In this document: positions 5,237-37,769 of the stretch, piece by piece
Numbering within the stretch: position 1 is the stretch's first letter
How the letters are laid out: the number at the start of each line of letters is the position of its first letter
Origin: Tubulanus polymorphus
Taxonomy: Eukaryota; Animalia; Nemertea
Direction: 5' to 3'
DNA length: 64,000 nt
Assembly: GCF_964204645.1 (NCBI RefSeq)
Contig: NC_134032.1
Coordinates: 5,046,175-5,110,174, forward strand
Translations under genes and position numbers: made by a program
Notes under the pieces: generated by a model
What the model saw: only the letters and a program-made list of their open reading frames with translations
What the model was told of the DNA's origin: nothing
The model's database searches: none

Positions 5237-5639
5237 CGCCGACTGGCAGCCATTGTTGTTTGGAAGAATCAGCACTTTTTATACGTTTTTGAACTTTTTG
5301 AGGGAAATTTTGAAGACGCTTTGGTCAATTACCTTGATCTTTCGTATATATTTTAATCCCCCGGGGCCCATAAGCATAACAAAAATTGGGTCAATCAGTC
5401 ACAAGATGGCCGTCCTATGACCTTTTTAGTGGCCAAAATTGTCAATTTTGGCCCGAATTTAGAGTCCTGTAGCTTCCTACTGATTTGCATTTCTCATTGC
5501 AATTGCTGATGGGTATACTTTGGAAAGGGATTTCTTATACCTGAGATAGGTATTTTTGATCAGCGAACTATGACGCAATCGGCGGCCATCTTGGTGTTTT
5601 TGGTACTCATTCGTTGGTGGGAAATAGTTTTTCGACATT

Positions 5640-6121
5640 ATATTCATACCTAAGCATATTTTGTTACCGCAATGAATTAGAAAGTTGTAGATTGTAAGGT
5701 TTTCTATTATTGTGGTGTGTTTCAAGGTCATTAGTTTTTGTATATGGCCACCAGGGGGCGTTGAATAATATAATAGCTTAGTATTTCTATATTATATGTG
5801 TACCAATGCATATTTTGTTACCACAATCAATTGCAAAGTTGTAACTCCTGACATCGCCTATGATTGTGGTCTGTTTTAAGGACATTAGTTATTCTATATG
5901 GTCACAAGGGGGCATTGAATAGTGGAATAACTTATTAATTTTAGTATTACTTTAGTATTTCCTTATTATATTGGTGCCTAGGCATATTTTGTTAACATGA
6001 TCAATTACAAAGTTGTAGTTCATGGCATCTTCTAAGATTGTGGCGAGTTTCAAGGTCATTTGGATTTGAATATGGTCACCAGGGTTCATTGAATTGTAGA
6101 ATAACTTAGTATTTCCACATT
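5640..6121. repeat. ~155-175 bp tandem-unit repeat that is the Polinton insertion target; continues at 20529-20660
   Basis: GCATATTTTGTTA(C/A)C...TTTCAAGGTCATT...TATGGTCACCAGGGG units at about 5654, 5808 and 5983, and again at 20543 after the Polinton. Confidence 0.8.
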
Positions 6122-6355
6122 AGTAATAGGGGTAATGGGCTTTCAGGCCAAAGGTCGAACGGTCGAGCTCATTAAAAAACAAAACATTAAAAGTAATTTA
6201 AAACTATAATATATTTTCATAACCGTGTGCATTTTATATTATAACTAAATATTTATTCTAAGATATTAATAATTTAAATTTTAAAAGCATATTGTATTAA
6301 ATCAATTGGTCGCTCCACTTCGCTACCGCTCCGCGACCAATTGATTTATTTACAA
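6122..6355 (+). repeat. Left TIR
   Basis: Near-perfect reverse complement of 20286-20522; contains the internal stem TAAATCAATTGGTCGC...GCGACCAATTGATTTA. Confidence 0.95.
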
Positions 6356-6384
6356 AATATTTTAAGATTCATGAAGAGGCAAGA

Positions 6385-6711
6385 TTGGCTCGAATAAATG
6401 ATTCTATTTCAGATGGTATTGTCAAATGTTATTCTAAGTTATGTAACCGGTTAATACCAATTAATGATGAAAATAAATTATATAGTGATTTGAAAAATGA
6501 CTACTTAGTTATGACTGAATTACAAAAATGGGTTGGTTATGCTTCATTTCAATTAGGATCGGTTATGACATTAATTTCTACCGGCGTCATAACATTTTCG
6601 AACATCAAACCTATGGAATATAAATCAGGTAAGAACGAAACAGATGTACTACAACCAAACGTCGAAACAGAAAATGAATCAGAACAAAAATTAACTAAAA
6701 TAAATGAGTGA
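6385..6711 (+). CDS. Polinton hypothetical protein, probably 5'-truncated, one hydrophobic segment
   Basis: 108-aa ORF; the reading frame runs back to the TIR junction with no ATG, suggesting a deletion. Confidence 0.5.
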   Translation: MARINDSISDGIVKCYSKLCNRLIPINDENKLYSDLKNDYLVMTELQKWVGYASFQLGSVMTLISTGVITFSNIKPMEYKSGKNETDVLQPNVETENESEQKLTKINE

Positions 6712-6859
6712 TAGCGTTAAGAAAAAGGCTAGATCTGAAAAACAAATTAAATGGGCAAGAGAATTAGGTAAAAGATCTTCAGAATTAAAAAAAGCTAAGA
6801 AAAAGAAATTAACTGATATAAATGAATCACATCATGAATATTATCTGATAACGATGTAG
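6704..6859 (+). CDS. Small basic Polinton protein (MSDSVKKKARSEKQIKWARELGKRS...), truncated by deletion
   Basis: TAAATG start overlapping the previous ORF; Lys/Arg-rich; runs into integrase sequence near 6840. Confidence 0.5.
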   Translation: MSDSVKKKARSEKQIKWARELGKRSSELKKAKKKKLTDINESHHEYYLITM

Positions 6860-7470
6860 ATTATTTTTCAACACATTCAGATAAAAAAGCATCTATTATA
6901 GAAAGATTTGATAAAACATTGAAAACTAGAATGTGGAAATATTTTACTGCTAATGAAACATATAAATATATCGACGTGATAGATGATTAAGTGAAAGGTT
7001 ATAATAATTCTAAACATAGTTCTATAAATATGAAACCTATACAAGCTAGAAAAGAAGATAATTCGGAAATAGTTTGGAATAATTTATATGGAGCGTTTGT
7101 TACACATGATTTCGGAGAACCTAAATTTAAAATAGGACAACACGTAAGAATATCTAAATATAGAAAAACATTTTATAAAGGTTATACTCCAAATTTTACT
7201 GAAGAAATATTCAAGATTAAAAAGATAATATTAACTAAACCATTTGTTTATAAACTAGAAGATCTAAAAGATGAAGAAATATTAGGTTATTTCTATGAAC
7301 GAGAATTATCATTTGTACCAAACCCAGATGAAATAGAATACAAAATAGAAAAAGTATTGAAAACAAAAACTCTTAAAGGAAAAAAGTATTCTTTTGTGAA
7401 ATATAAAGGATACGATGATAAATTTAATGAATGGATTTTATCTAGTAAAATTAAAAGAATAAATGAATAA
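6841..7470 (+). pseudogene. int: Retroviral-like integrase, C-terminal half with chromodomain; N-terminus deleted, internal stop near 6988
   Basis: KASIIERFDKTLKTRMWKYF, YNNSKHSSINMKP, FKIGQHVRIS, KGYTPNFTEEIF, GYFYEREL, chromodomain YKIEKVL...FVKYKGYDDKFNEWI. Confidence 0.92.
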
Positions 7471-8074
7471 AGATTTATTTATATTTGAACCGCATAATAT
7501 GTTAGTTACTGGTGTAACAAACTGTGGTAAAACACATTTCATATTAGATTTGTTAGAAACTATTTATAAGAATCATTTTGATAATATAATATTATTCTGC
7601 CCTACTTATGAAATGAATAAAACATATAATAGAGATATAGTTAAGATAAAAAAGTTTATTATATTAGATCCTAAAACAGTAAAAGAAAATTTAGATAATT
7701 GTATAAAAATAGCAATTGATACTTATAAAGGATCAAATACATTATTCATTGTAGATGATTGCGCAAATTTACATGATTCAAAAGTGAGAGAAAGTGAGTT
7801 ATGTTATTCAGCTTTCTCTGGGAGACATTTCGGGATAACAACATGGGTTTTAAATCAAAAATATAATTCAATTGTTAAAGACTTTAGGGAGAATATAAGA
7901 TTTCTAGTTTTATTTTATAACAAAGATAAAAAATCTATGCAACAATCATTGGAAGAAAATCAAATTATACCTACTGAATTACATGATGAATATATGAATA
8001 AATTAAAGAATAATAAAGGTTCAAAATTATTACTGAGATTACAATTTCCCTATGAATATAAATTTATAAAATAA
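7463..8074 (+). CDS. A32-like / FtsK-HerA DNA packaging ATPase
   Basis: Walker A GVTNCGKT, Walker B LFIVDD, SGRH motif and downstream Q; intact 203 aa. Confidence 0.92.
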   Translation: MNKDLFIFEPHNMLVTGVTNCGKTHFILDLLETIYKNHFDNIILFCPTYEMNKTYNRDIVKIKKFIILDPKTVKENLDNCIKIAIDTYKGSNTLFIVDDCANLHDSKVRESELCYSAFSGRHFGITTWVLNQKYNSIVKDFRENIRFLVLFYNKDKKSMQQSLEENQIIPTELHDEYMNKLKNNKGSKLLLRLQFPYEYKFIK

Positions 8075-8473
8075 CTATTTGTATACCTATGTATTAGATA
8101 CCCTAATACCTGATACCCTATTAGATACCCTAATACCTGATACCCTATTAGATACCTTAAATACTTAAAACCCCCTTTTTTTAAATAAATATTATTTATA
8201 CAATTTTCAACCAATTTATTTTTATTTTTTTCAACTAATATATGAATAAGTTTGAAAATAATAAAGGTTATTTATTATTACTGAGGTTTCAATTTCCATA
8301 TGAATATCAGTTTATAAAATAAGATATTTTATGTATTAGATTGTATTAGATTGTATTGGATATGTATTAGATACCTTAAATACCTTAAATACTTAAAACC
8401 CCCTTTTTTATTTACTATTATTTTATACAATTTTCAACCAATATTATTATTTGTGTTAAATATAATTAATATT

Positions 8474-9398
8474 TTAATCACTTTCACTATCAGACCCTAA
8501 CAATTTATTCAAATTCTCTACCGAATTTTCTTCTTCAAATTCTTTATTATTTTTATACTTTTTCATCCTTTCTACCGCATCATCAATAGTTTCTTCTTTA
8601 TGTTTCATAGAATTATATTTTAACTTTATTATCAATATCTGTAACTGTATCACCATGTGGGCGCCGTATGGCACCATTTTCATTATTATCTTTATTAGTG
8701 TTTGCTCCTAATATTTCATTTAAAGTGTTTGGTTTTAATATTTCATTAGCATCGGTTAGATCTAATTCATCTTTATTAGGCGTTGCTAATAATAAATCTT
8801 TATATAATTCTCTACCATTTACTTTTTGATTTGAAACAAACTTTGTAACATATCTAAATGGGTGTTCTATGAATTCTCTTATACCAACACGATCTATTAC
8901 ATTAGTAATATGTGAATTTGTATTCATATGTTTATTCCAATTTGATGGAACGTTTGAATATTCACTTTTACAATATCCACAATAATTTCTATTTTCACTA
9001 ACATTTAATATTATTTCATTATTTGATGTAGAAGGTATTACATTATTAGATGTAGAGGGTATTACATTATTAGATGTAGAAGGTATTACATTATTAGATG
9101 TAGTAGGTATTACATTATTAGATGTAGTAGGTATTACATTATTAGATGTAGTAGGTATTACATTATTAGATGTAGAAGGTATTGCATTATTAGATGTAGA
9201 AGGTATTACATTATTATCAATTACATTACTTAAATTATCAACAACACCACTTTTATTATTATCGATTTCTATCAGTTAAGTTTTATAAATTTTGAAAATA
9301 GGATCAAATATCAAAGCTATATTACAAGGTATTACATAATATAAACCATTATTATTTTCATGTGTATCGATGTATGGAATATGTTTATATACTTCCAT
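8474..9398 (-). pseudogene. Zinc-finger protein with 8-aa repeats (frameshifted)
   Basis: ATG at 9398; NNVIP(S/T)TS repeats; C2H2-like CGYCKSEYSNVPSNWNKHMNTNSH in frame with ORF 8613..8927. Confidence 0.65.
9027..9216. repeat. 24-bp coding minisatellite (7-8 copies)
   Basis: (GAA/GTA)GGTATTACATTATTAGATGTA repeated. Confidence 0.95.
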
Positions 9399-9430
9399 TT
9401 ATTATATAAATTTTTATTAAAGTTAAAATT

Positions 9431-10672
9431 CTAATACATAACACTATTTAATTGAGAATTTACAATATTTAATTGCGCGTCAGATATAATATAAATGTGC
9501 ATTTTAACATTTTTGATTCCTTTATTCATTGTCATGAATAATTGTATTCCATCTTTAGTGTTCTGTAATTTTTTTCCAGAACCATGTAATGAATTATCCT
9601 CTGTTGTTCTAAAATCTAACCATAATGCGTATTTATTACCGGTATAATAATCAATTTGATTAATATTACAATTTTCAGATGATTTTACTTTTTCATTCAT
9701 AAAATGTTTTCTAATTTCTGGCCATTGATCTATCATTCTCATTCCTTGACGAAATATTTTATTTGCTATTCCTTCGATAGTTATTTCTACTTTTGTTATT
9801 TCAGGATTATAATAATTATCAACATTTATTGCGCCATTAGTATATGTTGCAATGCTAAAAAAATATTAATATACCTTTAATAGATCTTCTTGGGAAGTTA
9901 ATATTCTCATTAATTATTTCATCATTTGCATTAATAGTTACAGTTTTAAATTTATCAATATAATCATATAATAATGAAAATCCTTGATTGTATTTAGTTT
10001 GAATTATACTTGAAATATTTTCATCAGTTACTGTATCATATTCTAAACATATATTCGATAATTTATAACTCATATTTTTATTAACGCTGGATATTACAAT
10101 TTCATTTACAGGAGCAAATGCAATTTCGAATATAACATCTTCTTGAATTGCGTATTTATATAAAGGTGCATTGTTATTTATCAATTCAAAGTCTAATGGA
10201 ATTTTATATTTGCTTCCATATATACTTTTTATCAATTTATCTACAGCATTAGTTAATATTGCATTATGTGCTTCTGATCTTAACTTATTTTGGTTTTCTG
10301 ATTGGATTCCTTGAAATATCATATTATTTCTATTTTCTTTAGTAAACCATAAATCTTTATAACCATAAATAAATTATAATCATCTAATGAGAAAACTGCT
10401 TCTGGTCCAATCTTTATTGTTAATTTCTTAATCAAATATCTCCCAACATTATCAACAACATAATTATTACCGATTACTTTTATATCGGCTGATAAATAAA
10501 TACTATTTGGAACATAAAAAGTATTTTGTGTTAATCGAGGGATTCTAACGTATAAAGTTTCATCGGGATTAATATTAGAAGGGTTATGAGTAATTATATG
10601 ATGTGATCTTTCTGCTTTAATAGCATTAGATATTCTATGATTCTTAGAAGGATTGATATAACTCCCACTCAT
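9431..10672 (-). pseudogene. Major capsid protein (double jelly-roll, hexon-like), split by frameshifts
   Basis: Three consecutive ORFs (10319..10672, 9855..10322, 9431..9742) totalling ~410 aa; HNPSNINPDETLYVRIP, SYKLSNICLEYD, PRRSIKGIL, LWLDFRT..DNSLHGSG resemble Polinton capsid proteins; size and context fit. Confidence 0.78.
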
Positions 10673-10692
10673 TTGTTCAACAAAAAAATTAA

Positions 10693-12116
10693 TTATTTAT
10701 TTTTTATCATGTTTACTAGCCCAAAAATAATAGCACTTACAACTGTAGTTAAAAATAAAATAATATGTTCAGCAGCAAAGTTAAAAATGTTTCCTGCAGA
10801 TTTCAATATAAAACCAACAATTGATGCAATAATTCCTGGTAATGCTGCAGCAGATTTTTTAGATAGTTCCCATAAATATTTTGCTAATTTCTTTAAACCA
10901 TCTTTAACTTTATCTTGTATAGAATTATTATCTGGGGGTTTATCCGGTTTATTGGGAGTAGGAGTAGATTTCAAAGCATTTGATATTGCTAAAACTATTG
11001 TTGTGAATACCATAGTTACAGATGTTAGAATTGAAAGAATTGTTATTCCTTCTAATTTAGATAATAGTCTTATTCTATCTATCAATGATATTTCAGAATT
11101 TGGTTTTATCAACAAATCTTTAAAAACATGTTTTAATCGTTTAAAATTATTACCATATTCTTTTAATAATATATCTCTTTCACCTTTCAGTACTTCTAAA
11201 TTATCTTTTAAATTATCAATTTCTTTTTCTCAACGTAATTCTTTTTGCCTATATTCCATTTCACCAATTAATTGATGGTCTAAATCATACTTTAATTGTT
11301 CTATCTCTTTATTTTTATCAGTTAATTCTTTTTCTAAAGTACTAATTTTAATATCTCTTTTACTTTTATTATGTGCAATTTTATCAGCTTCATTTCTTAT
11401 ACTAATAATTTCTCTAATTGCTTCATCAGAAAATATATTTAAATCTTCTAATTCTTGATCTGTTGCATCAAGTAATCCATTTGGTAAAAGTTTTTCAGTT
11501 TGAACTCTTTTTGATTTAATTTTACTAGTTTTGGAATTATCAGCTTCTTTAGGAATTTTTTTTTGGTATTAAATTTTCATTAATTATCTTAAAAACTTTA
11601 GCATTTCTTTGTTTAAATTCTCTTCTATTATCAATTATCTCTTTTTCTGTAACATAAGTTATAACATCATTAATGATTTTATTAATGATTCTATCTGGTT
11701 TTAATAAAATAAAAGTTGATTGTGTTATTATTTTATCGTTACTTTTAAGATTTGAAATCTTAAAATAATAGTTGCCTTTCAATTTCCAATAATAATCGCC
11801 ATTTAAATATTTCAAATCTTCTACTAAATAATCCATACCTTTATTTGTTATATTGAAACCAGATCTTTTTAACATTGATTTAAAATCACTAGTAATTTCA
11901 TTATATTTAAATTTTTTTCTGTTTATTCTGGTACTTCATTTTCAATACTTATCTTTGAACGTGTTTTATCAATAAATTCAGGTGTAGTTAAATTAGAATT
12001 ACGTCCTGGCTCATTACCGCCATTAAGACTTATTTCACTAAAATCAGGTGGTGGTTCATCACTTATACCAGGTTCACCTAAGGACCCAATGGAAAATCTT
12101 CTACACTTTCTTCCAT
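10693..12116 (-). pseudogene. Coiled-coil protein with C-terminal hydrophobic/amphipathic helices (putative virion membrane protein)
   Basis: ATG at 12116; fragments 11549..11875 and 10693..11115; GITILSILTSVTMVFTTIVLAI and AAALPGIIASIVGFIL segments. Confidence 0.65.
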
Positions 12117-12131
12117 TTACGTAATAAAAAA

Positions 12132-13433
12132 TTAAAATTTAAAATATAATATTCCTCCTATAACAATTCCTATACAGGTTAAAGCTAATTTAGTATTTTC
12201 ATGGGATTTATTATCATCATTTAGTTTAATTATATCATGTTGAATAATATCAGTTTTTATATCTTCTGATGTATTGTAATCTTTTATTTGAGAATCATTA
12301 TTTAATTTAATATTATTAGTTTTAGTTTCTGTTGATTGAATGTGTTTTTTATTTTTTTCACCTTCCATTAATTTTGGAGCAGTAATAATCTTTTTATTTA
12401 TATCATTCAATCCAAATGAATTATTTATTGTTGCAGTTTTAATTAGATTATTATAACCAATTATATTTCCCATCTTTAATACTAAATCATTAGAAATAAT
12501 GAATAGATTAGGGCCTATACAATAATTTAATCTAATATGTGATTTATCTAAATAATTTTGATATCTTACAATGTTTTCTGGAATAGATCTATTTTTATCA
12601 TTATGAATGGAATCTTCAAATAATACTTTAAATTGTTTCTGCGCATCGAATGAAGTGTTATCATTTCCAATTATTGGGGATCTTGTTTCAACTTGCGCAC
12701 CTAAAATACATATCAAATAAGTTCTAATAGATTGATTTATTCTTTGTATTCCGGCTTTAGTAAAACCTTCACTATTTTCTAAAATTAAATTAACCCAACC
12801 ATTATTGTTTTGTTGTTGTATATTATTATAATATTTTGGTAATTCATTCCAATTTAGTGTTCTTATATCTGAATTTGTCATTATTTTTCCAAATTCTGTA
12901 GTATACAATATTCCTAATCCACCCATTGTTCCAATTTTTGCTCTAAAATCTTTATTTGAATTAATATTAAATTCATTACATATTTTATAAAACTTAGAAA
13001 ATTAATATTATTATTCAATTCTTTAAAATATTTTAAACCTGGTAAAGGACATTCTAATTCATCAAGTATGAAATCTAAAAAGTGATAACATCAATGGTAA
13101 ACTTGGTTTGTTTAAATGATCATTCCAACTAATTCCACATCCTGTTGTTGCGCAATAAACAGCAAAATTCAATTGGTTCTGTCAATACTTCATTTTAGAT
13201 CTTAATAACCATTGTTTTGCCTCATTTAAATTTTTAAAATTAATTTCATAAACATTGAATATATTTTCCATCTTTACATGAAAATTATTACTTTCAGTAA
13301 CATAAATATATAAATCAAATAATGAATTTAAAACTTCATTTCTATATGTAATATCTTTATTAAAATCTATTGCTGGAATATTATATTTAATTGATTTATT
13401 ATATTGGAAAGCTTTTGGAAAACTATCTGCCAT
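12132..13433 (-). pseudogene. Polinton protein with C-terminal membrane anchor, frameshifted
   Basis: ORFs 13182..13433 and 12132..12926 linked by NQLNFAVYCATTGCGIS; ends LALTCIGIVIGGILYFKF. Confidence 0.65.
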
Positions 13434-13449
13434 TTATATAACTAAAAAA

Positions 13450-13884
13450 TTAATAATTTATTAATTCTTTTAATAATTTATCTTGTTCTTCAACTGTTAT
13501 ATGGCCATTTAAACTTATTATATATTCTAGTGTATTCTTAAATTTATTAATTTCTTTCATATTAGTTTTAATTTTTTCTTTATTACTTTTTATATTAAAT
13601 TTTGAACTGATACCAGTTAAAACACTTGAACTTAATCCTAATACACCAATTGATATAGCTAAAGGTGTTAATGGACTGAATATTGCTAAAAATGTTATTA
13701 CAGAACTTATTGTAACCGAACAACTAATAATAAGATATTATATAATTTTAGATTTTGAATATTTTTTCTTTTTTATCTTTAAGTCACTTTCAAATTCTAA
13801 TATTTGTTTTTCTAAATATGTTTTTAATTTAGTTTTATTTATATCATGAGGAATAATGTCAATATTATCAACTTTATCTTCCAT
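13450..13884 (-). pseudogene. Two-TM membrane protein with flanking coiled coils (not in the ORF track; disrupted)
   Basis: MEDKVDNIDIIPHD...SVTISSVITFLAIFSPLTPLAISIGVLGLSSSVLTGIS...HITVEEQDKIIKELINY read by hand. Confidence 0.6.
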
Positions 13885-13903
13885 TTATTTAGCAAAAAAA
13901 TTA

Positions 13904-14326
13904 CTAATTAGTAAACTTATAAGCAACAAATATAACAATAACAGTTCCACCTAAAATCCAAATTATTTCATATTTCTTCTGTTCATTACTTGGGGTATAA
14001 TAATCTGATATTGTAGGTTTATGTAGATGTAATTTTTCTTTATTGGTTACCGCGTTATAGAAACTCATTGCATCATCGACTGATTGAAAATCTCTATGTG
14101 AAATCTTCTGATCATATAATTCCTTGTTAATATAATCCATATAGTTTTGTCGTTTTTCTCTATATTCTTCTGCTGCTTTATTGTATTTCTCTAATGCTAA
14201 GTTATGTCTTTTTTGTTCTGTTAATGATCCATTTTTATCAATATGTTTAAATAAATAACCGCCACCAGTAAATGCTAAAGCGTTAACAATTGCCGATTCT
14301 ATAACAGTTATAACTGCAGAAGCCAT
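13904..14326 (-). CDS. Polinton protein with hydrophobic N- and C-termini
   Basis: Intact 140 aa; AIVNALAFTGGGYLF, EQKRHNLALEK, C-terminal TM. Confidence 0.75.
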   Translation of the reverse strand: MASAVITVIESAIVNALAFTGGGYLFKHIDKNGSLTEQKRHNLALEKYNKAAEEYREKRQNYMDYINKELYDQKISHRDFQSVDDAMSFYNAVTNKEKLHLHKPTISDYYTPSNEQKKYEIIWILGGTVIVIFVAYKFTN

Positions 14327-14350
14327 TTATTTAGTAAAATAATTACGCAT

Positions 14351-14572
14351 TTATATAGGAGGAATATATTTTTGTTTTTCCAAATAATCAATAGTTAAAT
14401 TAGATAAAGTAACTGCTAATGTTAATTTTAAAATATCATTTATATCAAATCTATCAACATTAACACTTCCCATTTTGAATACTTTTTTTAATACCATTGA
14501 ATAACCAACAGTTCCAACTGATAGTAATGCGCCATTATATAATCCAGTTATTATCCACTTATTATCACTCAT
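14351..14572 (-). CDS. Small hydrophobic Polinton protein
   Basis: Intact 73 aa, two hydrophobic helices, TAAATG start. Confidence 0.7.
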   Translation of the reverse strand: MSDNKWIITGLYNGALLSVGTVGYSMVLKKVFKMGSVNVDRFDINDILKLTLAVTLSNLTIDYLEKQKYIPPI

Positions 14573-14913
14573 TTATTTATCAAAAAATTACTATCTTCAT
14601 AATATTTAGTTATCTTATTTATGATTAATTCAACATTTATTTCATTACCACTTTTATGATTATCATATATTTTGGTTAATATGTTTTTAATATTATCAAT
14701 AATTCCATCTTCATTTAATTCATAATATTCTAAAGGTGTTTTAATTAAATCAATTACTTTTTCTATACTATAACTTTCTTTATTAATCATTGATGCATTG
14801 TTAAATAATTTACTTTTTATATCAGTAATTACATCATTTAGTTTAATTCTCATTTCTTTACCATGTTTAAAATCAAACCCAAAACATATACTCGGTCCAA
14901 CAGTTATATTCAT
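14569..14913 (-). CDS. Hypothetical Polinton protein
   Basis: Intact 114 aa, TAAATG start, overlaps the next gene. Confidence 0.65.
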   Translation of the reverse strand: MNITVGPSICFGFDFKHGKEMRIKLNDVITDIKSKLFNNASMINKESYSIEKVIDLIKTPLEYYELNEDGIIDNIKNILTKIYDNHKSGNEINVELIINKITKYYEDSNFLINK

Positions 14914-14929
14914 TTATATAGTAAAAAAA

Positions 14930-15691
14930 TTACTCTCTACATCTTATAACTAATTCATAAATTACAGGGAAATTATTTAAATCAATTAAGTGCCCATTAT
15001 GATTTCTAATTTCTAATCTAATATTATTAAAACGAGGAATGCATGGTTTGAAATCACATTCTGTTAAATTAAAATTTATTTGCGTTCCAAATTCTTTAAC
15101 ATTCTTCAATGGTAAAATGTTTAATAAATCAGAATTACAAGTTATATCTTTAGTTGCTTCGAATGTTTTTGTAGGATCGATTAAATTGCAATAAATATAA
15201 AAATGTGTGTAAGGTATTAAGTTTGGTGTAACATCATCAATATTTTTAAAAGATCTATCTGGAAGAATTCCTAATAGTTTAGCTATATGTTTTTTTACCA
15301 TAAATTTATGTTTTTCACTATTAGACAACCTTATCTTTATTCTATCAGAACTATCACTTTTTAAAAATCTAATAATAAACCCAGAACTACTACCTAATTT
15401 GTGCCAGGCTTTTCTATTAATTTCTTGTGCTAATGTATCTAACTTATATAACCCCGGTTTTAAATATATATAGGACCATTCATTTTTACCTTAATCAAAA
15501 ATTAAAAAGGCTCTATGTTCAATAGTTTTATTCGTTATATTATAAAAAGAATTACATAAAGTTATATTTACTAATTTTAAATCAACACAATTCTTAAATT
15601 CTCTATCTAATTGAACTAATAAATTATGTGATTTATAATTTGTAAGCCTTCTAGAATCAACAAATATTCTGTATTCTTTTAATTCTACCAT
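14930..15691 (-). pseudogene. Minor capsid protein (penton, single jelly-roll), disrupted
   Basis: N-terminal IFVDS...NSFYNI, PG-Y motif, FYIYCNLI, DLLNILP, C-terminal IRLEIRNHNGHLIDLN typical of Polinton/PLV pentons. Confidence 0.8.
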
Positions 15692-15699
15692 TTATTTTA

Positions 15700-16053
15700 C
15701 ATATTTTCTTATTCGAAATCTATTTCATGGTGCCCTTTTCATTCTTACCTTTGTATACGAAATAGAAATCACCAGAACATAATTCTTCAAGATCTTCACT
15801 TGATAATCTATGAAATCTATCCGGTAAATATGTTCTGAATTTATATGTATTTCCTTTTAATCCTTCATATTCTAAGTGTATAACTAATTTATCTCCATAT
15901 TACTGTATCAATATTTGTAATTAGATATTTCTTATGGATTATTAATTCTTTTAACTTCTTAAATTTATAATCTACTGATTTGACATTTGAAGTATCTTTT
16001 ATTCTATCTAGAAATAATTTGTTGTTTTTACTGTGCGCTTGTTTACTCTCCAT
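15700..16053 (-). pseudogene. Small beta-rich protein, possible OB-fold ssDNA-binding protein
   Basis: MESKQAHSK...FKKLKEL...KYLITNI...YGDKLVIHL...RTYLPDRF read by hand; one frameshift; fold is inferred. Confidence 0.45.
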
Positions 16054-16082
16054 TTATAATACATATTTTTATTAAAATTTGA

Positions 16083-19000
16083 TTAACACGTTAGAATTCT
16101 TTTCATTATCTCGTTCTCTTTTGTTTCTTCTCTTTTAAATTTTAAGTATTCATCTAAATTACAACCATAAGCAACTGTATGAATTCCATCATCTAAAATA
16201 TATCTTTTATCATCAAATGGGTTTAGACTTATCTTCTCAATTTCTTCAATAAACATTTCATGATCTTCAGATCTTCATGAATTGTTTAGCAATGATAATA
16301 ACAAAGTTCCAGGGAAATTTAAGGATGAATTAGGTGGTGGAGAAATGATAGAGTTCATAGGTATTAGATCTTTCATGTTTTATATGAATACATTTTAGAT
16401 CTAATACCTATGAACTCTATCATTTCTCCCCCACCTAATTCATCCTTAAACTTCCCTGGAACTTTGTTATTATCATTGCTAAACAATTCATGATCTTTAG
16501 GATAATTACTAAAATCAAAATGATGTTTTAATGTTTTTAAATCATCAGTTATGTTATCAGTTTTTATCTTTAATATGTAACTGTCGGTATCAAAATATAA
16601 TATTTCTATATGTTTTTCTCCAAAAAGTGGTTGTAATACATTATAATAGAATTCATACATTAGTAATTTTGATAATTCTAAAACTGAAGCGCCAACATAG
16701 ATTGGTTTATTAAATTTCATTGATGTTCTTCTCATCTTAACTGCAGCTAAATTTTCATCAAATATTCTGTTACCAATGAACTTAGGATATGATTGTAAAT
16801 GTCTAATTCTTTTACCATTACTAACTAACTCAATATCATTTCTATTTCTAATATTTTCACAAGTCTTACCATAGAATGCATTATTCATTAACTTGAAGAA
16901 ATCTTTCTCGAAATCAGTTTTAGCTTCAGTTCTCTGTTTGGTGTTAAAATCTATATATTTTTCTAACCACTTAGATTGACTAAATGAAATATATCTATGT
17001 ACTTTTTTTAGAACCATTCCTTGTTTTAGATAAAACTTTAACATTCTATAATGTACTACATAATTATATTTATCTTCTTGAGTTACCATTAACTTTTCTG
17101 TATGAATATGATTTTCGGGTTTAATTCTTTTTTGATAATTTGATAATTCATCATGAGTTACAGTTTTATGTTCGGGACAGTAAGCTAGATTTCTAGATTT
17201 AAATTTTTTATCTTCAGGATATTCCAAGTCTACAACAAAGAAGTAACCAGTATCTGAATCATCTGCAATATCTAGAATTCTTTTCTTCCAATCAAATTTA
17301 TCATTATTTTCATTCTGTAAAACTTCAGTTAATTCAAATACTCCATAAGGTTGTGGTTCCATCATTGCCCAACCATACAAATTATTTGCATCTATATATA
17401 ATAACTTATATCCAGGGTTATATTTACATTTACATTGAAATATCTATCACCTAATACACCTGAAACTCCTCCTCTTATAGAATTTTCAAATAATAATAAT
17501 TGATCTATATTTGTTAACAAATCCATTTTTATATCTGTAAATTTTAATCCACAATCCCATGTTAAACCTGGGCTAGAATAACAATGACAAGGATCAATAT
17601 TAAAATATTTTAGGTTTACATCTCTAAACCTTTCAAATATATCGGTTAATAATAATACATCTGATTTTAGATATAAATCTACTAATTGCCCATGATTTTC
17701 TATTTTCTATGTTAAAATCATTATGTGATTTATAGAAAGAATATGGAATTGCTCCTTTATATCTCATTAATTGAAAATCATCATTATTTGGATAGTGTTG
17801 TTTTAATATTTTTAATTCATCATCAACTAATGATTTTGATAAGTTATCTAATGAACTATTTAAAAACCTATATGAATCTATAATCTTAGGCAACCAAATT
17901 GGAATGATATATAATTCTCAGATGTTTTAGCTAACATTCTAAATTTATAAGTTGGTATTCTATCTTTTGATCTATTTGAATTTAATCTTTCTATTTCGTT
18001 ATTAATTTCTTCTATTTTATGGCATAACTGTTTGATGAATAAATGTGCATCATATCCTGATAGATTATGAAATATAACTGGTACAAAGTTAATTTTCTTA
18101 GCTTGTAAGTTACAATTCTCATGTGCGGCGCCTCTAAACTTTCCATTCAAATGATCATGGTCTCTTACTTTTTTATCTTTATAATTAAATATCTTTGCAC
18201 AATAATAACATTTATCTGCAAACTCAAATGCTTCTTTATCTTCTTCTGTCATTATAATTTCTATATTTGTATTCAATAATTTACTAAATCTTATTTCATA
18301 TTCAATTAATAAGTCACAAAAATGATTGATAACAATTTCATTTCTATAATGATAATATTCACTTTCAATTAGTTCTGGATAATCAGATTTAATATATAAC
18401 CCGAAAGCAGCAGCTGATTGATGAATCTTTTTGATAGTATTTGTTTTTGGTGGTTCATCTGAAAAATCATTTTCATTAGAATTTAATTTCTTTCTTTTAT
18501 AATATATTTCTTTTCTATCTCGATCAGTTAATTCTTTATTTAGTGATTCAAAATCTCCATATATTACAAATGGTACTTTGTTTTTGTAATCATATTTTTT
18601 GAATTCTAATATTTTATCTTTTTCATTTGGTAAAACTAATTTTCAATAATCATGATTTTCACATAATTGTTTATGATTTAATAATGTACTTTCATTACTG
18701 AATCTATGTAAACATTTTCTACAAAGATATATTTTATGGTGATCATTTTCTGATTTAAAAAATAAATCGATTTGTTTAATCCACATATAATGATTCTCAT
18801 AATATAGTATATCTATAACATCATTTGAATCATAATCTTTTGATAGATATAAAGGTTCTAATGTATAATGTTTTATGTTGTTACCTTTTGTATTTGGTAA
18901 TTTGATTAAATCAAATACATTTATTCTTAAATTATTATCTCTTTCTATTTTTGGGATGTTTTTAATTATAACAGGATACTTATCTATCTTATAGTTATTT

Positions 19001-20007
19001 TCAAATTGTTTATAATTTGTTAATCTATAAGTATGTTTATTATAATCTTCAACTGGATGTAAACAACTTATTATAGCCCATAGAAAACATTTATCATCTT
19101 CATTTTGTACATTTATTACAGCATTAGTTTTAAATGGCAGTTTAATATAACTTGAGGCTTCAATATCTGGTTTTTTATAATATGATACATTATTTTCATC
19201 AATTGGTTTTGATTTAGTTAACTTGTTATATTTTGTGTTATAAACATGTAAAGTCATAAATATTGTTTCATCAAATATTAAACCAGATCCTTCAAAATAT
19301 TTCTCTTCTATTTTAGTTTTCACTTCATTATAACATTTATCTAATTTATCATCTACATGTTGTTTAGATATAATATGTTGTGAATGAGAATTAATATTAT
19401 ATATTGGTTTATCTTCAGATTTTATAAACTTTACTTTAACTGATATACTAATTTTAGGGTATTCAACATCTGTAATTATTTTTATAATATTTTTCATATT
19501 TTCTAAATGTTTTTTATTTTCTTCTAATGTTTTTCCTTTATGAAATTTAAACTCAATAGCTGCTGGGCCAATATCACTTTTAAATGCTTCGGTTATCTCT
19601 ATATCTTTTTTATTATCCAATGAATTAATATAATTTCTTACATCTTCCATGTATGGTCTTTTATTGTTTAATTTATTTTTTATGCTTTTAATTGTCTTCT
19701 GTTTCTTATCATTATCTTTATCAAAATAATCTTCACCTAAAATATCATTATTCTTATTTCTAATATGACTTTTAGATTTTAAATGTTCATTATAATATCT
19801 TTTATCACTGAATGATTGATTACATGTATCACATTTGTATGTTTCTTTTTCATTCTTTAATTCATCTAATTTAGTTTCTAATATATCATCTTTATATTCT
19901 AGTTTCAATTTTTTCTCTAAATGTGTTTTAGTTTTATTGTGTCTTGATTTTTGGGATTTATCTATATTGATATTACATGTTGGGCAGTAGTACTTATTTG
20001 CTTCCAT
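16083..20007 (-). pseudogene. polB: Protein-primed family B DNA polymerase with N-terminal Zn fingers, OTU-like Cys/His region and endonuclease VII-like insert
   Basis: DANNLYGWAM, KLMNNAFYGK, YFDTDS, GKFKDE, DDKRY; exonuclease HNLSGYDAH; RDHDHLNGKFRGAAHENCN; several frameshifts and a deletion near 17705. Confidence 0.96.
16275..16493. repeat. 97-bp inverted duplication inside polB
   Basis: 16275-16371 is the reverse complement of 16397-16493 (2 mismatches seen), 25-nt spacer. Confidence 0.92.
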
Positions 20008-20285
20008 TTTAATACTAAATTTTTTATTAAAATTGATTTTAGAAGTTCAATGATTTATATCATGTATTATTTCAATCACACTTTACTAACACTTTTAATG
20101 TTTAAACATCTAACTCATACAAATATGAATATTGAAATAATGTTGTAAATATATACTTTTATATTGAATAATCTGTCAATTTAAATGTTTAAAACTATAA
20201 TATATTTTCATAACCGTGTGTATTTCAGTTGAATAATAGAATAATAATTATTATTAAAATATATTTGATTATATGAATTTGTGTA

Positions 20286-20522
20286 TTGTAAATAAATCAA
20301 TTGGTCGCGGAGCGGAGCGGTAGCGAAGTGGAGCGACCAATTGATTTAATACAATATGCTTTTAAAATTTAAATTATTAATATCTTAGAATAAATATTTA
20401 GTTATAATATAAAATGCACACGGTTATGAAAATATATTATAGTTTTAAATTACTTTTAATATTTGTTTTTAATGAGCTCGACCGTTCGACCTTTGGCCTG
20501 AAAGCCCATTACCCCTATTACT
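20286..20522 (-). repeat. Right TIR
   Basis: Reverse complement of 6122-6355; followed by TSD CACATT. Confidence 0.95.
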
Positions 20523-20717
20523 CACATTAAATTGGTAACGAGGCATATTTTGTTATCACAATCAATTACAAAATCGTAGCATATGACATGTTCTATGATT
20601 GTGGTAAGTTTCAAGGTCTTTGGTTTTTGTATATGGTCACCAGGGGCGTTGAATATTGAAATTGTTAGATTGTTGAGCATTTGAAACCACTTCCCAAGTG
20701 GGCATGGTGACCCTGGA

Positions 20718-21499
20718 CGGTACTCGAAAAACGCCTAATGAAATACACCGAATCGGAAAACGCATAACGCCTAATTCCTAGAAAATGACCTAATTTCGTA
20801 ATTGCAAAATCTACTGAGACTCACAATCCAACTCATCAACGGAACAGTTTGAAAATACATGTGTTTTACGCTTCACGAAACGAGACTACTACTCTTATAA
20901 ACTTCATTATAGGATGATGATAGAATTTCCGCAGTGCAAGCAATTAATTAAATAACGCCATAGAAGTGTAAACTGAAACAGTTTACACTTCTATGATAAC
21001 GCGAAAACAAACGCCGCGGTTATAAACCGGCTTTCTTGAATTTTGAAACCGGAATGCATAAATATGGTACAACCTACGCTCGTAGGTACAACGCACACAA
21101 AGATTGATAAAATAGCCTTTCTCAAAATTATCCTCCAAAACTGTTCACAACCACGCTAATGTGAACCTACCGAACCAATGAGAGACTAAATAATGTCCAG
21201 CCCCTGAACTTCCTTGAACAAAAAATTATAAACTATATGTTCGATATTAAAAATATCATGTCTTTTATTATCATAATACTCCGTCTTGATATGAAATAAT
21301 AACACAGATAAGCCTGTGTAACCAAATACAGTAGAAACGAAGATGGAACAGGCGGCGCTCCACGCACTCCGACGTGAACTATGTAGCGTTGCGTACATAG
21401 TTCACGTAGGGATTTAGGTAAATTTCTTGGATGTTACTTGAATTAGGCGTTATGCGTTTTCCGATTCGGTGTTTTTCATTAGGCGTTTTACGAATACCG
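20718..21499. mobile_element. Non-autonomous DNA transposon, ~60-bp TIRs, 9-bp TSD (MULE- or Merlin-like)
   Basis: CGGTACTCGAAAAACGCCTAATGAAATACACCGAATCGGAAAACGCATAACGCCTAATT and its inverse; flanks GACCCTGGA / GTCCCTGGA. Confidence 0.85.
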
Positions 21500-22619
21500 G
21501 TCCCTGGACCCCTAGTTAAGCATGGTGATAATACAGTATCATAAATAAATTCTTATTTGTTGATTGTATGTCCGCGTATGTTCGGTTTCAAAGCTGAATC
21601 ATATTTGACGTTTACACAGTGGTTGCATATTAGGTTCGAATCTGTCAATGGATTTTATTCTATGTATCGGTATTATTTCAATTTACTACAATTCCAATCA
21701 TTCTGAATGGCTTTGCAGAAAACCCGTCATCACTGCTTAGCAGCTATATTTATATTTTGTATTGCACACATGTAACGTCATAAATATTATTCAAATATTA
21801 AACCAGATCCTATACCAGGGCATATAGTCATACAGATCATTCATTAAAGCATTATCCATTCTCCAAACTCAACGTAGCTGAATTTTGAAAGAGGGCCTCT
21901 TTAAAATTTATATGAGCTCTTTCGCGAATATCTGATCGCAAAAATATTGGTTTTGAAACGCCAATCAGAAAGCACAGACTCCTCTATGATTGGCTTAGCC
22001 GCAGAAATCAGCAGGTGTTCACGTGGACCCGCGGTATCGTCTACCGTTTTACTCCCGGGTTTTATTTTAAGATCTAAAATTGTATTTCAAGATCGATTTC
22101 TGTGAAAGCTTTTAGTTGATTTGGTTTTTGGGAGGAATATTTTTATTAGCGCTTCAGAAAATATCATTGAACATCGTTGAAAGCCTGGGAAAAATTGCTT
22201 TTTCTCAAATCGGATAGATGACCTTGATATGCTAATAAGCCATGTGCTCAAACTACAAATTCAATCAAATTTATTCTGCAAAAAAAAATATCAAATCCAA
22301 TTCAATTTTACTTTATTGAACAAATGAAAACATCAAATCCAATTCAATTTTGTTTTAATGAGAAAATTTCAGAAAATTCAATTCTATTCCGCATTAAAAT
22401 CAATAAGACCAAGGGAAAAGATTTATCTGAGGTATTTGTTCTTGCCCGATCCAGTCGCTGTCTGTGCTACTTTTGTATTATACGATTGTATTGTGTAAGT
22501 TATTAGATATTGACTCTGAGCTGGGAGTGCATTTTGACAAATTTAACCCATAGAATGCATCACCATTTGCCATTTGATGAAAAGCTGACAGGCTGGCCAT
22601 AGTGCACCTTGGGCTCTTG

Positions 22620-22914
22620 TATATTGGTTTATTTTCAGATTTTATAAATCTAACGTTATCAGATATACTAATTGTGGATATTCTACGTCTGTTATTATTT
22701 TTAAAATATTGTTCATATTCTCTAAATGTTTTTTGTTTTCTTCTAATGTTTTGCCTTTTAAATCTAAACAATTTAATAGCAGCTGGTCCAATATCACTTT
22801 TAAATGCTTCGGTTATTTCGATATCTTTTTTATCATCTAATGAATTAATATAATTTCTAACATCTTCCATGTATGGTCTTTTATTGTTGAATTTATTTTT
22901 TATTCCTTTAATTA
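22620..22914 (-). pseudogene. Relic of the Polinton polB N-terminal region
   Basis: NNKRPYMEDVRNYINSLDDKKDIEITEAFKSDIGPAAI matches 19400-19695; a ~30-bp further relic lies at 21779-21811. Confidence 0.88.
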
Positions 22915-25324
22915 TGCTGAGAAGATACCTAATGTTCAAATTTTCACTTTCTTTGAAGAAATGCCAAGTTTATTGGGCAGATTGAATACTGATTGCCCGT
23001 CAGACAAGCTTATTTTCGTGGGTGATTATAATATTCACATGGATAAATCAAACAATAGGGATACTCAACGATTTCTAGATATCCTACAGCAGCATGATTT
23101 GGTTCAACTTGTAGATCAACCTACTCATGAAAAGGGTCACACACTTGATCTTGTTATTGTTAGAAGTAGTGAGGTATGCATATGTGATTTGGATGTGGAT
23201 GATACTGCATGTATTGCTGACCACTATCCGGTTTCTTTCTCGGTAAATATCTGCAAACCTCCGTTGCCTACAAAAGAGATAGTGTATAGAAAATTGAAGG
23301 ATATTAACACTGCCTTATTATCTGAGATGTTCTCCAAGATTGACTTCAGTAACTTTGACTGTGTGGATGATTTAGTCACCGTTTATAACTCTGAGCTCTC
23401 TCATTTATTAGATGAATTAGCACCAGCTAAGAAGCGAAGTATTCGCATTCGTCCGAATGTTCCGTGGGGCAGTGAGGAAATTATTAAATACCGCTAGAAA
23501 GTCAGACAACTGGAGAGAAAATGGAGACATTCTCATCTGACAATAGATCGTGAAATTTGGAAATATCATTGTTGTAAAATGAAACAAATGATGAAACTGG
23601 AAAAACTAAAACCTTTCTCAGTCACCGCTGAGGTGGGCATTGCTGACTTATTTAGCACAATTCGGAAGTTGGTGTATGGTAAAAGCTCTACCAAAACACA
23701 ATGATGCTGTTTAATTAGCAAATGAGTTTGATGTTTTCTTTCTAGATAAAGTTGATCAGATAAGAGATTCTTTACCTGAATCCAATATTGATGCTTCTGA
23801 GCATTAGAATGCTGTAAAGGTTTTAGACAGTTTTAAAGCTGTGTCAATCGATCAGATTGCCAAAATTGTAATTGGCATGCGACCTACATATTGTAGTCTG
23901 GATCCATTTCCATCACAACTTCTTAAGACGGGGCTTAAAGGTATCATGCCGCTCATTACTAAAATAGTAAGCTGTTCATTGGTATCTGGACATGTTCCAA
24001 AAGATTTTAAACAAGCTATTTTGCAGCCCCTCCTCAAGAAGTCATCCCTTGATGCTGATTGTTTGAAAAACTATCGGCCCGTATCCAACTTGTCTTTTCT
24101 GTCGAAAGTACTCGAAAGAGTAGTAGCAGACCAGCTAACACTCCATTTGTCAAGCAATAACCTAGCAGACAAATTTCAATCTGCTTATTAACAACGCCAC
24201 AGTGTCGAAACAGCTCTGATTAAATGCATTATGACTTACTTTGAATCATTAGAATCAAAGCAGTGTGTGTTACTTGTTTTCTTGGATTTAAGCGCTTGCT
24301 TTCGACACTGTGGACCTCACTAGACTCGTAGAACGTCTTAATTTACTAGGAATTCAAGGCACAGTTCTTGATTGGGTCAGGTCATATCTTAGCAATAGGA
24401 CTCAAAGTGTATGTGTAACTTTTCTGAGCAATTGGAAATCAAATTTGGTGTACCTCAGGGTTCCGTTTTGGGCCCTTTGCTTTTTGCAGCGTACATTACT
24501 CCTCTTGGTAACATTAGTCAACAGCATGATCTTGATTATCATCTCCATGCTGATGATAATCAACTTTATTGCGTTTAGTGTGCCTGATTTGTTCCCATCA
24601 TGTCAAATTATGTCAGAAGGAGCTGATGATTTAAATTTCTGGATTAGGAATAATTTCCTCAAATGCAATGGGGATAAGACAGATGCGCTATTCGTGTATA
24701 CTAGGAATATGTATAGTCAGCTTCAACAGTTACCTCATATCAGAATTATTGATTCTGACATCAGACCTTCTACTTCTGTTAGGAATTTTGGAGTAATTTT
24801 TGACTCGGAGCTTACTTTCAAATATCAAATATCATCCATTGATAAATCCTGCGACTTTTCATTTACGCAACAGAAGCAAAATAAGGGACTTTTTATCTGA
24901 TGACGCTGCTCGCATTTATGTCCATGTCTTGGTTACTTCACGTCTTGATTTCTGCAACTCCTTGCTCAACGGGCTCCCTGCAAAGCCCCTCAAACCACTT
25001 CAGAGAGTCCAAAACAATGCAGCACGTCTAATTTCTCGCTCTAGCAAGTTTTCACCTCGTGAACTACGATCAGCCAATCAGTTTCTGCTAGTTGTCCCTT
25101 TGTTTCATAGTCAGTCTACAGGTAGTCGGTCATTTTCCAACAGCGCCCCTTAATTGTGGAACCAGCTTCTGCTTAGCCTTCGTGCTATCACTTCATTAGA
25201 TCAATTCAGGAAGCAGCTAACATGCTTCCTTTTTGAGGAGGAATTTTATAATTTGTATAGCGCTTTGAGCAGCTTAGCTGGATTTAGCGCAATATAGGAT
25301 ACTTTATTATTATTATTATTTATT
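22915..25324 (+). mobile_element. 5'-truncated LINE (L2/CR1 group), degraded ORF2 endonuclease-reverse transcriptase
   Basis: [71 protein letters not shown]; L2-like 3' end AGCGCTTTGAG...AGCGC plus (TTA)n tail. Confidence 0.92.
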
Positions 25325-32989: not shown

Positions 32990-34067
32990 AATTAAATTGT
33001 GGCATGAATTCTTAGCCTTATCATCAACACAGTTATTGGCAGTCATTATTTATAATCAATTTGTAAGAATCGTGTTTGTCCTTTCTAAAGGATCTTTCTG
33101 AAGTGCAATTCATGAGATTCCCAGGCAGTCCCTCCGTTATTACTTTAATCGAGAGAAGCTATGATTTTACTTTGTCAATGTTCGCTGTTTGATAATTGAA
33201 AACAACAAAATATTAATTTGATTTTAATTTTAAATATAATTCATTGTTTTGCATTGTTTTTGCTAAAAATGTTTCCTTGAGCTGGTAGTTTAAGTGACAT
33301 AATAATAAAATCTTATAGTACCGGTTATTGATTTACACGGATCTCTATGTTTCGTGTTGGTTTTATTAGGTTGCATGTATTTCAAGTGAGGACCACAGAA
33401 AGGAGAGCCCGAAAATCAGGTCGTTAAGTAGCGGCAAAATTCATGCAGGAGCTGACACGTTACATTCATATTGAATATTTGACATGAATATTTGAGCACC
33501 GGTTACTGATATATCTTCATATCATCATCTTTATTTTCCTTTACAATTTCAGTTGCATAAAATGTAAACTCATTATTACGTTTAATACACTAATATGCAT
33601 AAATACATATTTCAGTGTAAGTAAATAAATATGGAGTTTTTTAAATGAATAAGTGGATTCATTTCACATTATATATAACAGAAATAGAAAGGATGGAACA
33701 GTAGGAAGCCAAGGCTTGTAAGAAACTGGCCCCTAACCCTTCTGCAACCCAAGTTTTCACAGCCATACTAAAATCACACAACACAATCACACGACATATT
33801 CACAACATAATGAGAGGGACAGAGGGCGCGGCTCGGTTCATGAGCGTAGTGCGGATCAAAGCTCCAATAAAAGTCTATTTTTCCTAAGTGTGGTTCTTTG
33901 TTTCTGAACTAGATTCATATACAGGAGGATATAAACAAAAGGCAAAATATGGTGAGAATTTTTTTTGATGTATACACTTCCCAATCGGTGACATTTGGTG
34001 TGTATCTACCACGTACTGTAGGACGTTTAAATTTGTTGAACAGCCAATAGCGACGTCACTGTAAAGA

Positions 34068-37000: not shown

Positions 37001-37559
37001 CTTATTTTAGGATATTCAACATCAGTTATTATTTTATTATTTCTTTCATATTTTCTAAATGTTTTTTATTTTCTTCTAATGTTTTTCCTTTATGAAATTT
37101 AAACTCGATAGCTGCTGGGCCAATATCACTTTTAAATGCTTCGGTTATCTCTATATCTTTTTTATTATCCAATAAATTAATACATTTTCTTACATCTTCC
37201 ATGTATGGTCTTTTATTGTTTAATTTATTTTTTATGCTTTTAATTGTCTTCTGTTTCTTATCATTATCTTTATCAAAATAATCTTCACCTAAAATATCAT
37301 TATTCTTATTTCTAATATGACTTTTAGATTTTAAATGTTCATTATAATATCTTTTATCACTGAATGATTGATTACATGTATCACATTTGTATGTTTCTTT
37401 TTCATTCTTTAATTCATCTAATTTAGTTTCTAATATATCATCTTCATATTCTAATTTCAATTTATTCTCTAAATGTGTTTTAGTTTTATTGTGTCTTGAT
37501 TTTTGGGATTTATCTATATTGATATTACATGTTGGACAGTAGTACTTATTTGCTTCCAT
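34068..37559 (-). pseudogene. polB: pPolB copy C, truncated at the DTD motif
   Basis: ORFs 37029..37559, 36125..36346, 34921..35715, 34670..34855 and 34056..34574 are collinear with copy B. Confidence 0.95.
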
Positions 37560-37769
37560 TTTAATACTAAATTTTTTTTAAAATTGATTTTAGAAGTTCA
37601 ATGATTTATATTATGTATTATTTCAATCACACTTTACTAACACTTTTAATGTTTAAAAATCTAACTCACACAAATATAAATATTGAAATAATGTTGTAAA
37701 TATATCTATATATCTATTCTATAAGAGCTTACACTTTTACATGTTATTCATGTATATGATTATTTTAAG

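Follow-up and report, generated by a model that had tools for sequence, protein, structure and literature searches.

Candidate poxvirus-type late promoters at near-constant spacing before the genes of a decayed Polinton in the nemertean Tubulanus polymorphus

The element described here is a decayed Polinton/Maverick lying in a 64,000-nt stretch of the genome of the nemertean Tubulanus polymorphus (assembly GCF_964204645.1, contig NC_134032.1, positions 5,046,175 to 5,110,174 of the forward strand; hereafter the window, position 1 being its first nucleotide). A TAAA-type initiator overlaps the start codon at all 13 starts examined in this element (11 TAAATG, one TAAAATG at the gene for a DNA polymerase of family B (PolB) and one CAAATG at the major capsid gene, MCP), and at seven of them it is preceded by a tract of T residues at an almost constant distance (6 nt from the end of the T-run at six starts, 7 nt at the other). 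Judged from its sequence, this motif is likely to be a poxvirus-type post-replicative promoter, and we put at roughly 60% the probability that the promoters are read by the RNA polymerase of a co-infecting helper nucleocytovirus, most likely a poxvirus-like one. The seven sites, each given with the open reading frame (ORF) that it precedes, are the following.

14911..14932, minus strand: late-like promoter of ORF 14913; T-tract, 6-nt spacer and TAAATG, the leading TAA being the stop codon of the penton candidate
14570..14590, minus strand: late-like promoter of ORF 14572, inside the coding end of the upstream ORF
14324..14345, minus strand: late-like promoter of ORF 14326, with an interrupted T-tract
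13882..13903, minus strand: late-like promoter of the SLATT-like ORF 13884, from the motif match
13431..13452, minus strand: late-like promoter of ORF 13433, with a 7-nt spacer; the leading TAA is the upstream stop
12114..12134, minus strand: late-like promoter of ORF 12116; the leading TAA is the upstream stop
10670..10691, minus strand: late-like promoter of the MCP gene, CAAATG in this copy and TAAATG in the relative L001

A T-tract (six or more T between positions −13 and −6) is present at seven of the 13 starts and at none of the 36 TAAATG sites in the window that are not starts (Fisher p 2e-5). The pattern drawn from the seven sites matches seven times; 100 dinucleotide shuffles of the whole window average 0.12 matches, and shuffles of the element only, which make the background AT-matched, average 0.08, with none of 300 reaching seven. 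As this pattern was fitted after the fact, a literature-type pattern (T5-N5-8-TAAATG) was also run, which gave five matches in the element (0.79 expected) and 11 in L001 (1.01 expected; 0 of 300 shuffles in each case), with no match in 38 kb of host flank. TAAATG by itself is weakly enriched (47 versus 31 expected; 2 of 300 shuffles), so the signal is its placement at gene starts. The first-pass annotation of this DNA had reported six motifs and the variant before ORF 14326, and these are present on the minus strand with the spacers that it gave; the TAAATG starts that it named at 15691, 7463 and 6704 are likewise there, and the enrichment over an AT-matched shuffled background that its proposal implied is found. 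Its pattern also included a leading TAA, which at three of the seven sites is the stop codon of the upstream gene as judged from ORF ends, and the full pattern has only three matches in L001; the conserved unit is thus the T-tract, about 6 nt and TAAATG, and the TAA drops out as a required part. Among the window's sites the gap from the upstream stop to the motif ranges between −4 and 24 nt, while the distance from tract to ATG stays the same. At position 10675, the deviant base of the MCP initiator, the window's letter is contradicted by 359 of 363 and 346 of 359 reads, so that the deviation looks private to the window copy.

Vaccinia late promoters are described as TAAAT, mostly running into the start codon's G, with a conserved T at −10 among other T residues (PMC11980589) and a gap of 5–7 bp (PMC5294985), which agrees with the annotation's description of them as a T-rich tract, a spacer of about 6 bp and TAAAT(G). 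The sites in the element have the same composition: TAAAT(G) overlaps the ATG, the core is T-rich with T at −10, and the gap is 6–7 nt. TAAAT(G) is also reported from a fish poxvirus and an entomopoxvirus (PMC4542343, PMC3061580). The intermediate promoters of vaccinia have TAAA, lack the T at −10 and are AT-rich further upstream (PMC11980589), an AT-rich core being followed by a 12-bp spacer and TAAA (PMC12917281).

The six remaining starts in the window, those without a T-tract, have a run of A residues upstream. This second class, which the annotation overlooked, and the presence of the initiator at every start including that of PolB extend the motif's reach beyond the seven sites on which that account had concentrated.

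20005..20031, minus strand: A-rich (intermediate-like) promoter of PolB; AATAA, 12 nt and TAAA, with no ORF directly upstream
16051..16076, minus strand: A-rich promoter of ORF 16053; AATAA and 12 nt
15689..15713, minus strand: A-rich promoter of the penton candidate; AATAA and 14 nt (13 nt in L001)
9396..9421, minus strand: A-rich promoter of ORF 9398; AATAA and 12 nt
6684..6706, plus strand: TAAATG start with an A-run upstream, lysine-rich ORF 6704, from motif inspection
7443..7465, plus strand: TAAATG start with an A-run upstream, ATPase gene, inside the 3' end of the integrase gene

The A-rich pattern, again fitted after the fact, matches four times in the window (0.22 expected) and marginally in L001 (two matches against 0.28; 7 of 300 shuffles). 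Since no gene lies directly upstream of PolB, its AATAAA is not simply the poly(A) signal of a neighbour. On sequence, the two classes appear to fit the published vaccinia types, the late type closely and the intermediate type more loosely.

Relatives of the element were collected from a metagenome scan (11 loci) and a genome scan (two loci), and the motif is kept among them down to about 45–53% identity of the packaging ATPase. L001 (11.5 kb, 19.6% GC, 80% ATPase identity) is nearly intact apart from the missing PolB end, has a gene order unlike that of the window, and is intronless, as the annotation had supposed of the ORFs here. All 14 of its genes start at TAAATG (what looks like a fifteenth ORF continues the integrase frame as its second half), and a T-tract is present at 10 of the 14 starts against one of 23 non-start TAAATG sites (p 3e-5), with a gap of 5–8; the motif keeps its distance from the ATG whether the upstream stop is as near as 3 nt or as far as 325 nt. 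Fourfold sites are saturated between the window and L001 (identity at 85 of 189, or 0.45, against 0.44 expected by chance). Six orthologous pairs of the late class, by comparison, agree at 37 of 42 positions of the T-tract, 23 of 36 of the spacer and 17 of 18 of the initiator TAA, and at 39 of 120 in the ungapped region further upstream. Conservation of the motif despite saturated fourfold sites points to selection while the family was active. Seven short relatives (30–35% GC) have TAAATG at 12 of 15 starts, with T at −10 in 10 of these, a scoring that took in also three starts of L132 (none TAAATG) and left out L010. Conserved spacing in related elements, on which the annotation's case partly turned, is therefore found in L001 and, as the T at −10, in the seven short relatives. 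More distant elements (L005, L011 and L133) are without the motif, with TAAA starts at 4 of 15 in L011 and 0 of 5 in L133. Searches of viral contigs with the ATPase, an ATPase alignment or an MCP alignment found no relatives, and none were found in phage records. L132 and L133 have Polinton-type capsid genes within contigs of prokaryotic metagenome-assembled genomes, which is likely to be binning contamination. L001 also has, at 10340–10981 behind a late-like promoter, a deoxynucleoside kinase gene (dNK, E 1.7e-31) that is absent from the window copy; among its 38 matches there is no named poxvirus relative.

For comparison with viruses, 83 viral loci were fetched by motif scan and their anchor genes removed, a motif-based choice that inflates their counts. 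In these pooled loci TAAA(A)TG begins 193 of 1144 ORFs and 19 of the 193 have a T-tract, with spacers scattered from 0 to 16; AT-richness alone thus does not produce the element's pattern. Two motif scans of viral contigs gave one exact match per locus among the 80 matches listed in each, and when all 120 and 83 loci from the two scans were scored, none was near the element's motif density. DTAAG, a baculovirus-type motif, was also considered as the signal and rejected (4 of 13 starts versus 2.0 expected).

The element itself has the following parts.

6122..20522: decayed Polinton/Maverick element, 14,401 nt, delimited by terminal repeats, the flanking 6-mer, GC content and empty-site joints in reads
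6122..6334: left terminal inverted repeat, about 210 nt, from repeat pairs
20312..20522: right terminal inverted repeat, about 210 nt, from repeat pairs
6856..7470, plus strand: C-terminal portion of an rve integrase, chromodomain included; 70% to the L001 integrase (L001 rve E 1.5e-10; Chromo match)
7463..8074, plus strand: A32-like packaging ATPase, intact (Pox_A32 E 3.9e-11)
9431..10672, minus strand: double jelly-roll major capsid gene (MCP), in three frames in this copy; 67–74% to the L001 MCP
10693..14913, minus strand: six ORFs of unknown function behind late-like promoters, some broken; four of the L001 orthologues have hydrophobic segments
14930..15691, minus strand: penton (minor capsid) candidate with one internal stop; 41% to an L001 ORF
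16164..20007, minus strand: presumed family B DNA polymerase, interrupted by stops and frameshifts and including an endonuclease VII domain (Endonuclease_7 E 1.3e-5; tblastn to a 1394-aa L005 ORF)

By gene content this is a decayed Polinton/Maverick: it has an rve integrase, an A32-like ATPase and a double jelly-roll MCP, and an identical 6-mer flanks both ends, a 6-bp target duplication that, like the terminal inverted repeats, is a trait of that group. Its GC content is 23.7% against about 33–44% in the flanks. In DNA run X5 coverage is several hundred-fold in most bins of the element, the reads being mostly 85–99% alike, and 3,295 reads join position 6118 to 20526 as an empty-site joint, all of which is consistent with the existence of many diverged copies and with a high-copy host repeat as insertion site. 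The window copy has suffered a deletion, and the N-terminal part of the integrase was not found in it. We take the ORF at 16164..20007 to be a family B polymerase from its motifs, with no Pfam polymerase match in the window or L001. For the MCP of L001 a single-sequence model reached pLDDT 34, so a model built from an alignment with 46 homologues was used instead (pLDDT 90.1); its Foldseek matches are the double jelly-roll capsids of iridovirus and PBCV-1 (TM 0.61–0.66), with the mavirus MCP 45th (TM 0.52), so the capsid does not group with the virophage type. The penton assignment is inferred: the Atlas neighbours of the L001 orthologue are unnamed viral proteins of equal size, with no named fold match. 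In a Kyte–Doolittle scan of the L001 orthologues hydrophobic segments were found in four of the six motif-bearing genes other than MCP, those of ORFs 14913 and 14572 falling below the threshold, so that the annotation's 'capsid/membrane block' holds in part, for the MCP fold (as modelled for L001) and for these four. No adenovirus-type cysteine protease (a trait of Group 1 Maverick-Polintons) was matched among the ORFs of the window or L001, both of which are incomplete sequences, and the small ORFs without assignment had no significant Pfam, PHROG or PDB match.

Several smaller observations concern these genes and their surroundings. The SLATT-like ORF (13450–13884, behind a late-like promoter) would encode a two-helix membrane protein (weak Pfam match, E about 0.002), and the SLATT family is linked to antiviral systems. 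The 3' end of the ATPase gene is partly duplicated (8074–8613), and it is followed at 8613–9398 by an ORF, not found in L001, that contains an 8-residue unit repeated in tandem (24 nt) and a weak C2H2-like segment; within the 3' end of the PolB gene is a 107-nt inverted duplication (16275–16493). The Polinton interrupts a very high-copy host repeat with subunits of 154–174 nt (5597–6122 and 20523–20718). A second, truncated PolB end of the same family (34056–37957; 93–98% alike) has the same A-rich start context and contains an inverted duplication of the terminus at 37770–37957, and scraps of related elements are found at 1143–1608 (a terminus with a 131-nt inverted repeat) and 21750–22999 (short PolB fragments). 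The flanks also contain a Pao retrotransposon and, at 47451–59005, ORFs resembling the DUF1280 transposase together with a Helitron in decay that has OTU domains, herpes-tegument deubiquitinase-like domains and a tandem repeat of 54 nt; these transposons make an animal host likely. At 62292–62954 there is an ORF with two PC4 domains (E 3.5e-18).

If the promoters are read by a helper's polymerase, the integrated copy would stay silent in uninfected cells; once a helper has entered, an excised copy would reach the viral factory. By analogy with poxviruses, transcription by the helper polymerase would begin within TAAA, and slippage there would leave a 5' poly(A) leader running directly into the AUG. 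Intermediate factors would serve the A-rich class first and late factors the T-tract class afterwards; replication genes would precede the capsid and membrane block, and the element's own PolB, ATPase and capsids would replicate and package it. The annotation had proposed transcription by a poxvirus- or nucleocytovirus-like helper on the grounds, among others, that no RNA polymerase is encoded, and in keeping with this the ORFs of the window and L001, incomplete as both are, gave no sign of an RNA polymerase subunit or of TBP, TFIIB or VLTF3. The late-promoter architecture and its conservation in relatives also speak for such transcription; 'poxvirus' is the best match and not the sole one, the initiator being common in two other viral records described below. 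The initiator thus appears to be common to nucleocytoviruses, and it is the fixed-spacing T-tract that favours, without proving, a poxvirus-type helper. Of the probability given above to a helper, somewhat the larger part falls to a true poxvirus and the smaller to another nucleocytovirus with similar late promoters. The element likely works like a virophage without being a member of the virophage class, so that of the annotation's 'endogenous virophage-like element' the lifestyle stands as an inference, and class membership fails on the Polinton/Maverick gene content and the rank of the mavirus MCP. We regard as speculative the wider proposal that a germline-resident family of animal Polintons consists of endogenous poxvirus parasites with intermediate and late promoters that wake on poxvirus infection.

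A number of points weigh against transcription by a poxvirus-like helper. The initiator is not specific to poxviruses: in the iridovirus-like L163 (capsid closest to grouper iridovirus, E 2.4e-115) 17 of 26 starts are TAAA(A)TG, three with a T-tract, and the T-tract pattern matches six times in its whole 127-kb record against three for a reversed control; in the giant-virus bin G002 (52 kb) the initiator is at 19 of 50 starts, eight of them T-rich upstream with loose spacing. The poxvirus side of the comparison rests on published descriptions and not on a poxvirus late-gene block, as the one orthopoxvirus-like record matched gave a terminal stretch only (0 of 7 TAAA starts) and is uninformative for late promoters. 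No helper was revealed among the 120 and 83 viral loci of the motif scans, which served as background. With a deletion in the window copy and no PolB end in L001, other copies may carry a transcription-factor gene; the relative L005 (40% ATPase identity) does encode a VLTF3-like factor (5746–6387; E 1.3e-16) and uses a TATATA-type motif, TATATA occurring within 16 nt of 9 of 11 starts in L005:1–11833, like the late initiator of African swine fever virus, in which TATATA is reported at the start site of late genes (PMC5294985). This suggests lineage-specific promoter codes. The promoter of the 14913 gene belongs to the T-tract class in the window and to the A-rich class in L001, so that class is not fixed to gene, and this switch between orthologues makes a two-step cascade weak; the A-rich pattern is, besides, marginal in L001. 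Finally, integration requires a nuclear stage. As a separate observation on L163, many of the TAAA(A)TG starts in L163:1–20021 are preceded by TATAA, and its MCP, VLTF3 and TFIIB genes lie close together.

The nuclear stage is also the starting point of the best surviving alternative, in which no helper takes part and a host factor, or an unrecognised factor of the element, directs host RNA polymerase II to a private core promoter, the likeness to poxviruses being convergence or shared ancestry. An element that integrates does enter the nucleus, several small ORFs here are without assignment, and, besides the VLTF3-like factor of L005, VLTF3 is described in coral polintoviruses (PMC11131425). 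Against this, none of TBP, TFIIB, VLTF3 or a polymerase subunit was found in the window or L001. PolB and the integrase also carry the initiator, which leaves no obvious host-type early gene to begin a cascade, and since the initiator overlaps the ATG there is no templated 5' untranslated region. A TATA box 25–70 nt upstream, the distance expected for RNA polymerase II, is present at one of 13 starts against 1.6 expected. AATAAA is frequent on the coding strands (about 6 per kb) and not depleted relative to synonymous shuffles (58 versus 56.6 in L001, or 5.7 per kb, and 36 versus 40.1 in the window), although this test, in a further point against reliance on a helper, was without a working positive control, host transposons giving 2 versus 3.5 on too few sites. 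On balance we consider transcription by the host polymerase unlikely.

It is improbable that the motif is instead a translation or punctuation signal of a compact AT-rich genome, be it an A-rich start context, stop–start coupling or a U-tract terminator of the upstream gene. Invertebrate start codons commonly have A at −3 to −1, the TAA that leads the T-tract coincides with an upstream stop at three of the seven window sites, as noted, and the tract contains the poxvirus early terminator TTTTTNT. However, the distance from tract to ATG is fixed under the widely varying upstream-stop gaps given above for the window and L001, and the tract is also found before genes that are divergently oriented or isolated. 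TTTTTNT is, moreover, depleted equally on both strands of coding DNA (z −2.9 and −2.5), which gives no sign of strand-specific terminator use. Least probable of all is that the promoters are relics, inherited from a cytoplasmic helper-dependent ancestor and now out of use: the window copy is decayed and the distant L005, L011 and L133 have no motif, but its conservation across lineages with saturated fourfold sites, and down to the ATPase identities given above, implies selection while the family was active.

Transcription by a poxvirus-like helper, if it occurs, would extend the principle of the endogenous virophage from protists to animals, and such Polintons may protect their host as mavirus protects Cafeteria. 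It would also predict a poxvirus-like virus in this host, where none was met here.

Among known systems, the late and intermediate promoters of vaccinia are alike in having TAAAT(G) overlapping the ATG, a T-rich core and, in a looser fit, a class with an AT-rich core about 12 nt upstream of TAAA. The present case differs in being a 14-kb integrating element with no detected polymerase or transcription factors and a tighter spacing (6–7), and in being known from sequence alone. The yeast linear plasmids pGKL1/2, as described in PMC6211774, are likewise AT-rich PolB elements with a poxvirus-like TAAAN initiator; they differ in having their own RNA polymerase and capping enzyme, no capsid and no integration. 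A likeness in gene content is with the animal Polintons/Mavericks ('adintoviruses', PMC8502044), especially the protease-less ones outside the two main groups (10.64898/2026.06.19.733378; PMC11296320 on Polinton-3_NV), which have PolB (presumed in the window), and the same rve, A32 ATPase, double jelly-roll MCP, terminal repeats and 6-bp duplication. The word 'promoter' does not occur in the available text of the adintovirus paper (PMC8502044), the coral polintovirus paper, the egovirus preprint or two 2026 classification preprints (including 10.64898/2026.06.19.733378), and six short peptides had no match in the adintovirus supplement.

Polinton-like viruses (PLVs) have been reported in occlusion bodies of entomopoxviruses (PMC11296320). 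These (AHEV_PLV1/2, CBEV_PLV1 and Ca_PLV1) are also small polinton-like viruses of animals that are linked to poxviruses and proposed as hyperparasites, the link resting on co-purification and gene sharing; they have a cysteine protease and no rve integrase, whereas the element in the window has rve, lacks a detected protease and resides in multiple copies in its host's genome. In the main text of that paper 'promoter', 'motif' and 'transcription' do not occur, nor does 'promoter' in its supplement, in which four short peptides had no match. Sharing of promoters between virophages and giant viruses is itself established, CroV being described as inducing only the endogenous mavirus-like type that has the CroV late motif (PMC10945749). 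Mavirus and EMALE04 of Cafeteria burkhardae resemble the present element in their integrated PolB, rve and capsid genes, their terminal repeats and the late motif of a large DNA virus on their genes. They are reported to differ in a protist host, a helper of the mimivirus family, another motif, a virophage-type capsid and helper dependence established by experiment; the element in the window has an animal host, a pox-type motif and no known helper. In a search outside which most subscription journals lay, no report of poxvirus-type promoters in animal Polintons was found. Promoter sharing between virophages and giant viruses and the PLVs linked to entomopoxviruses were already known, and what appears to be new here is the presence, in an animal Polinton, of promoters that are likely to be of poxvirus type.

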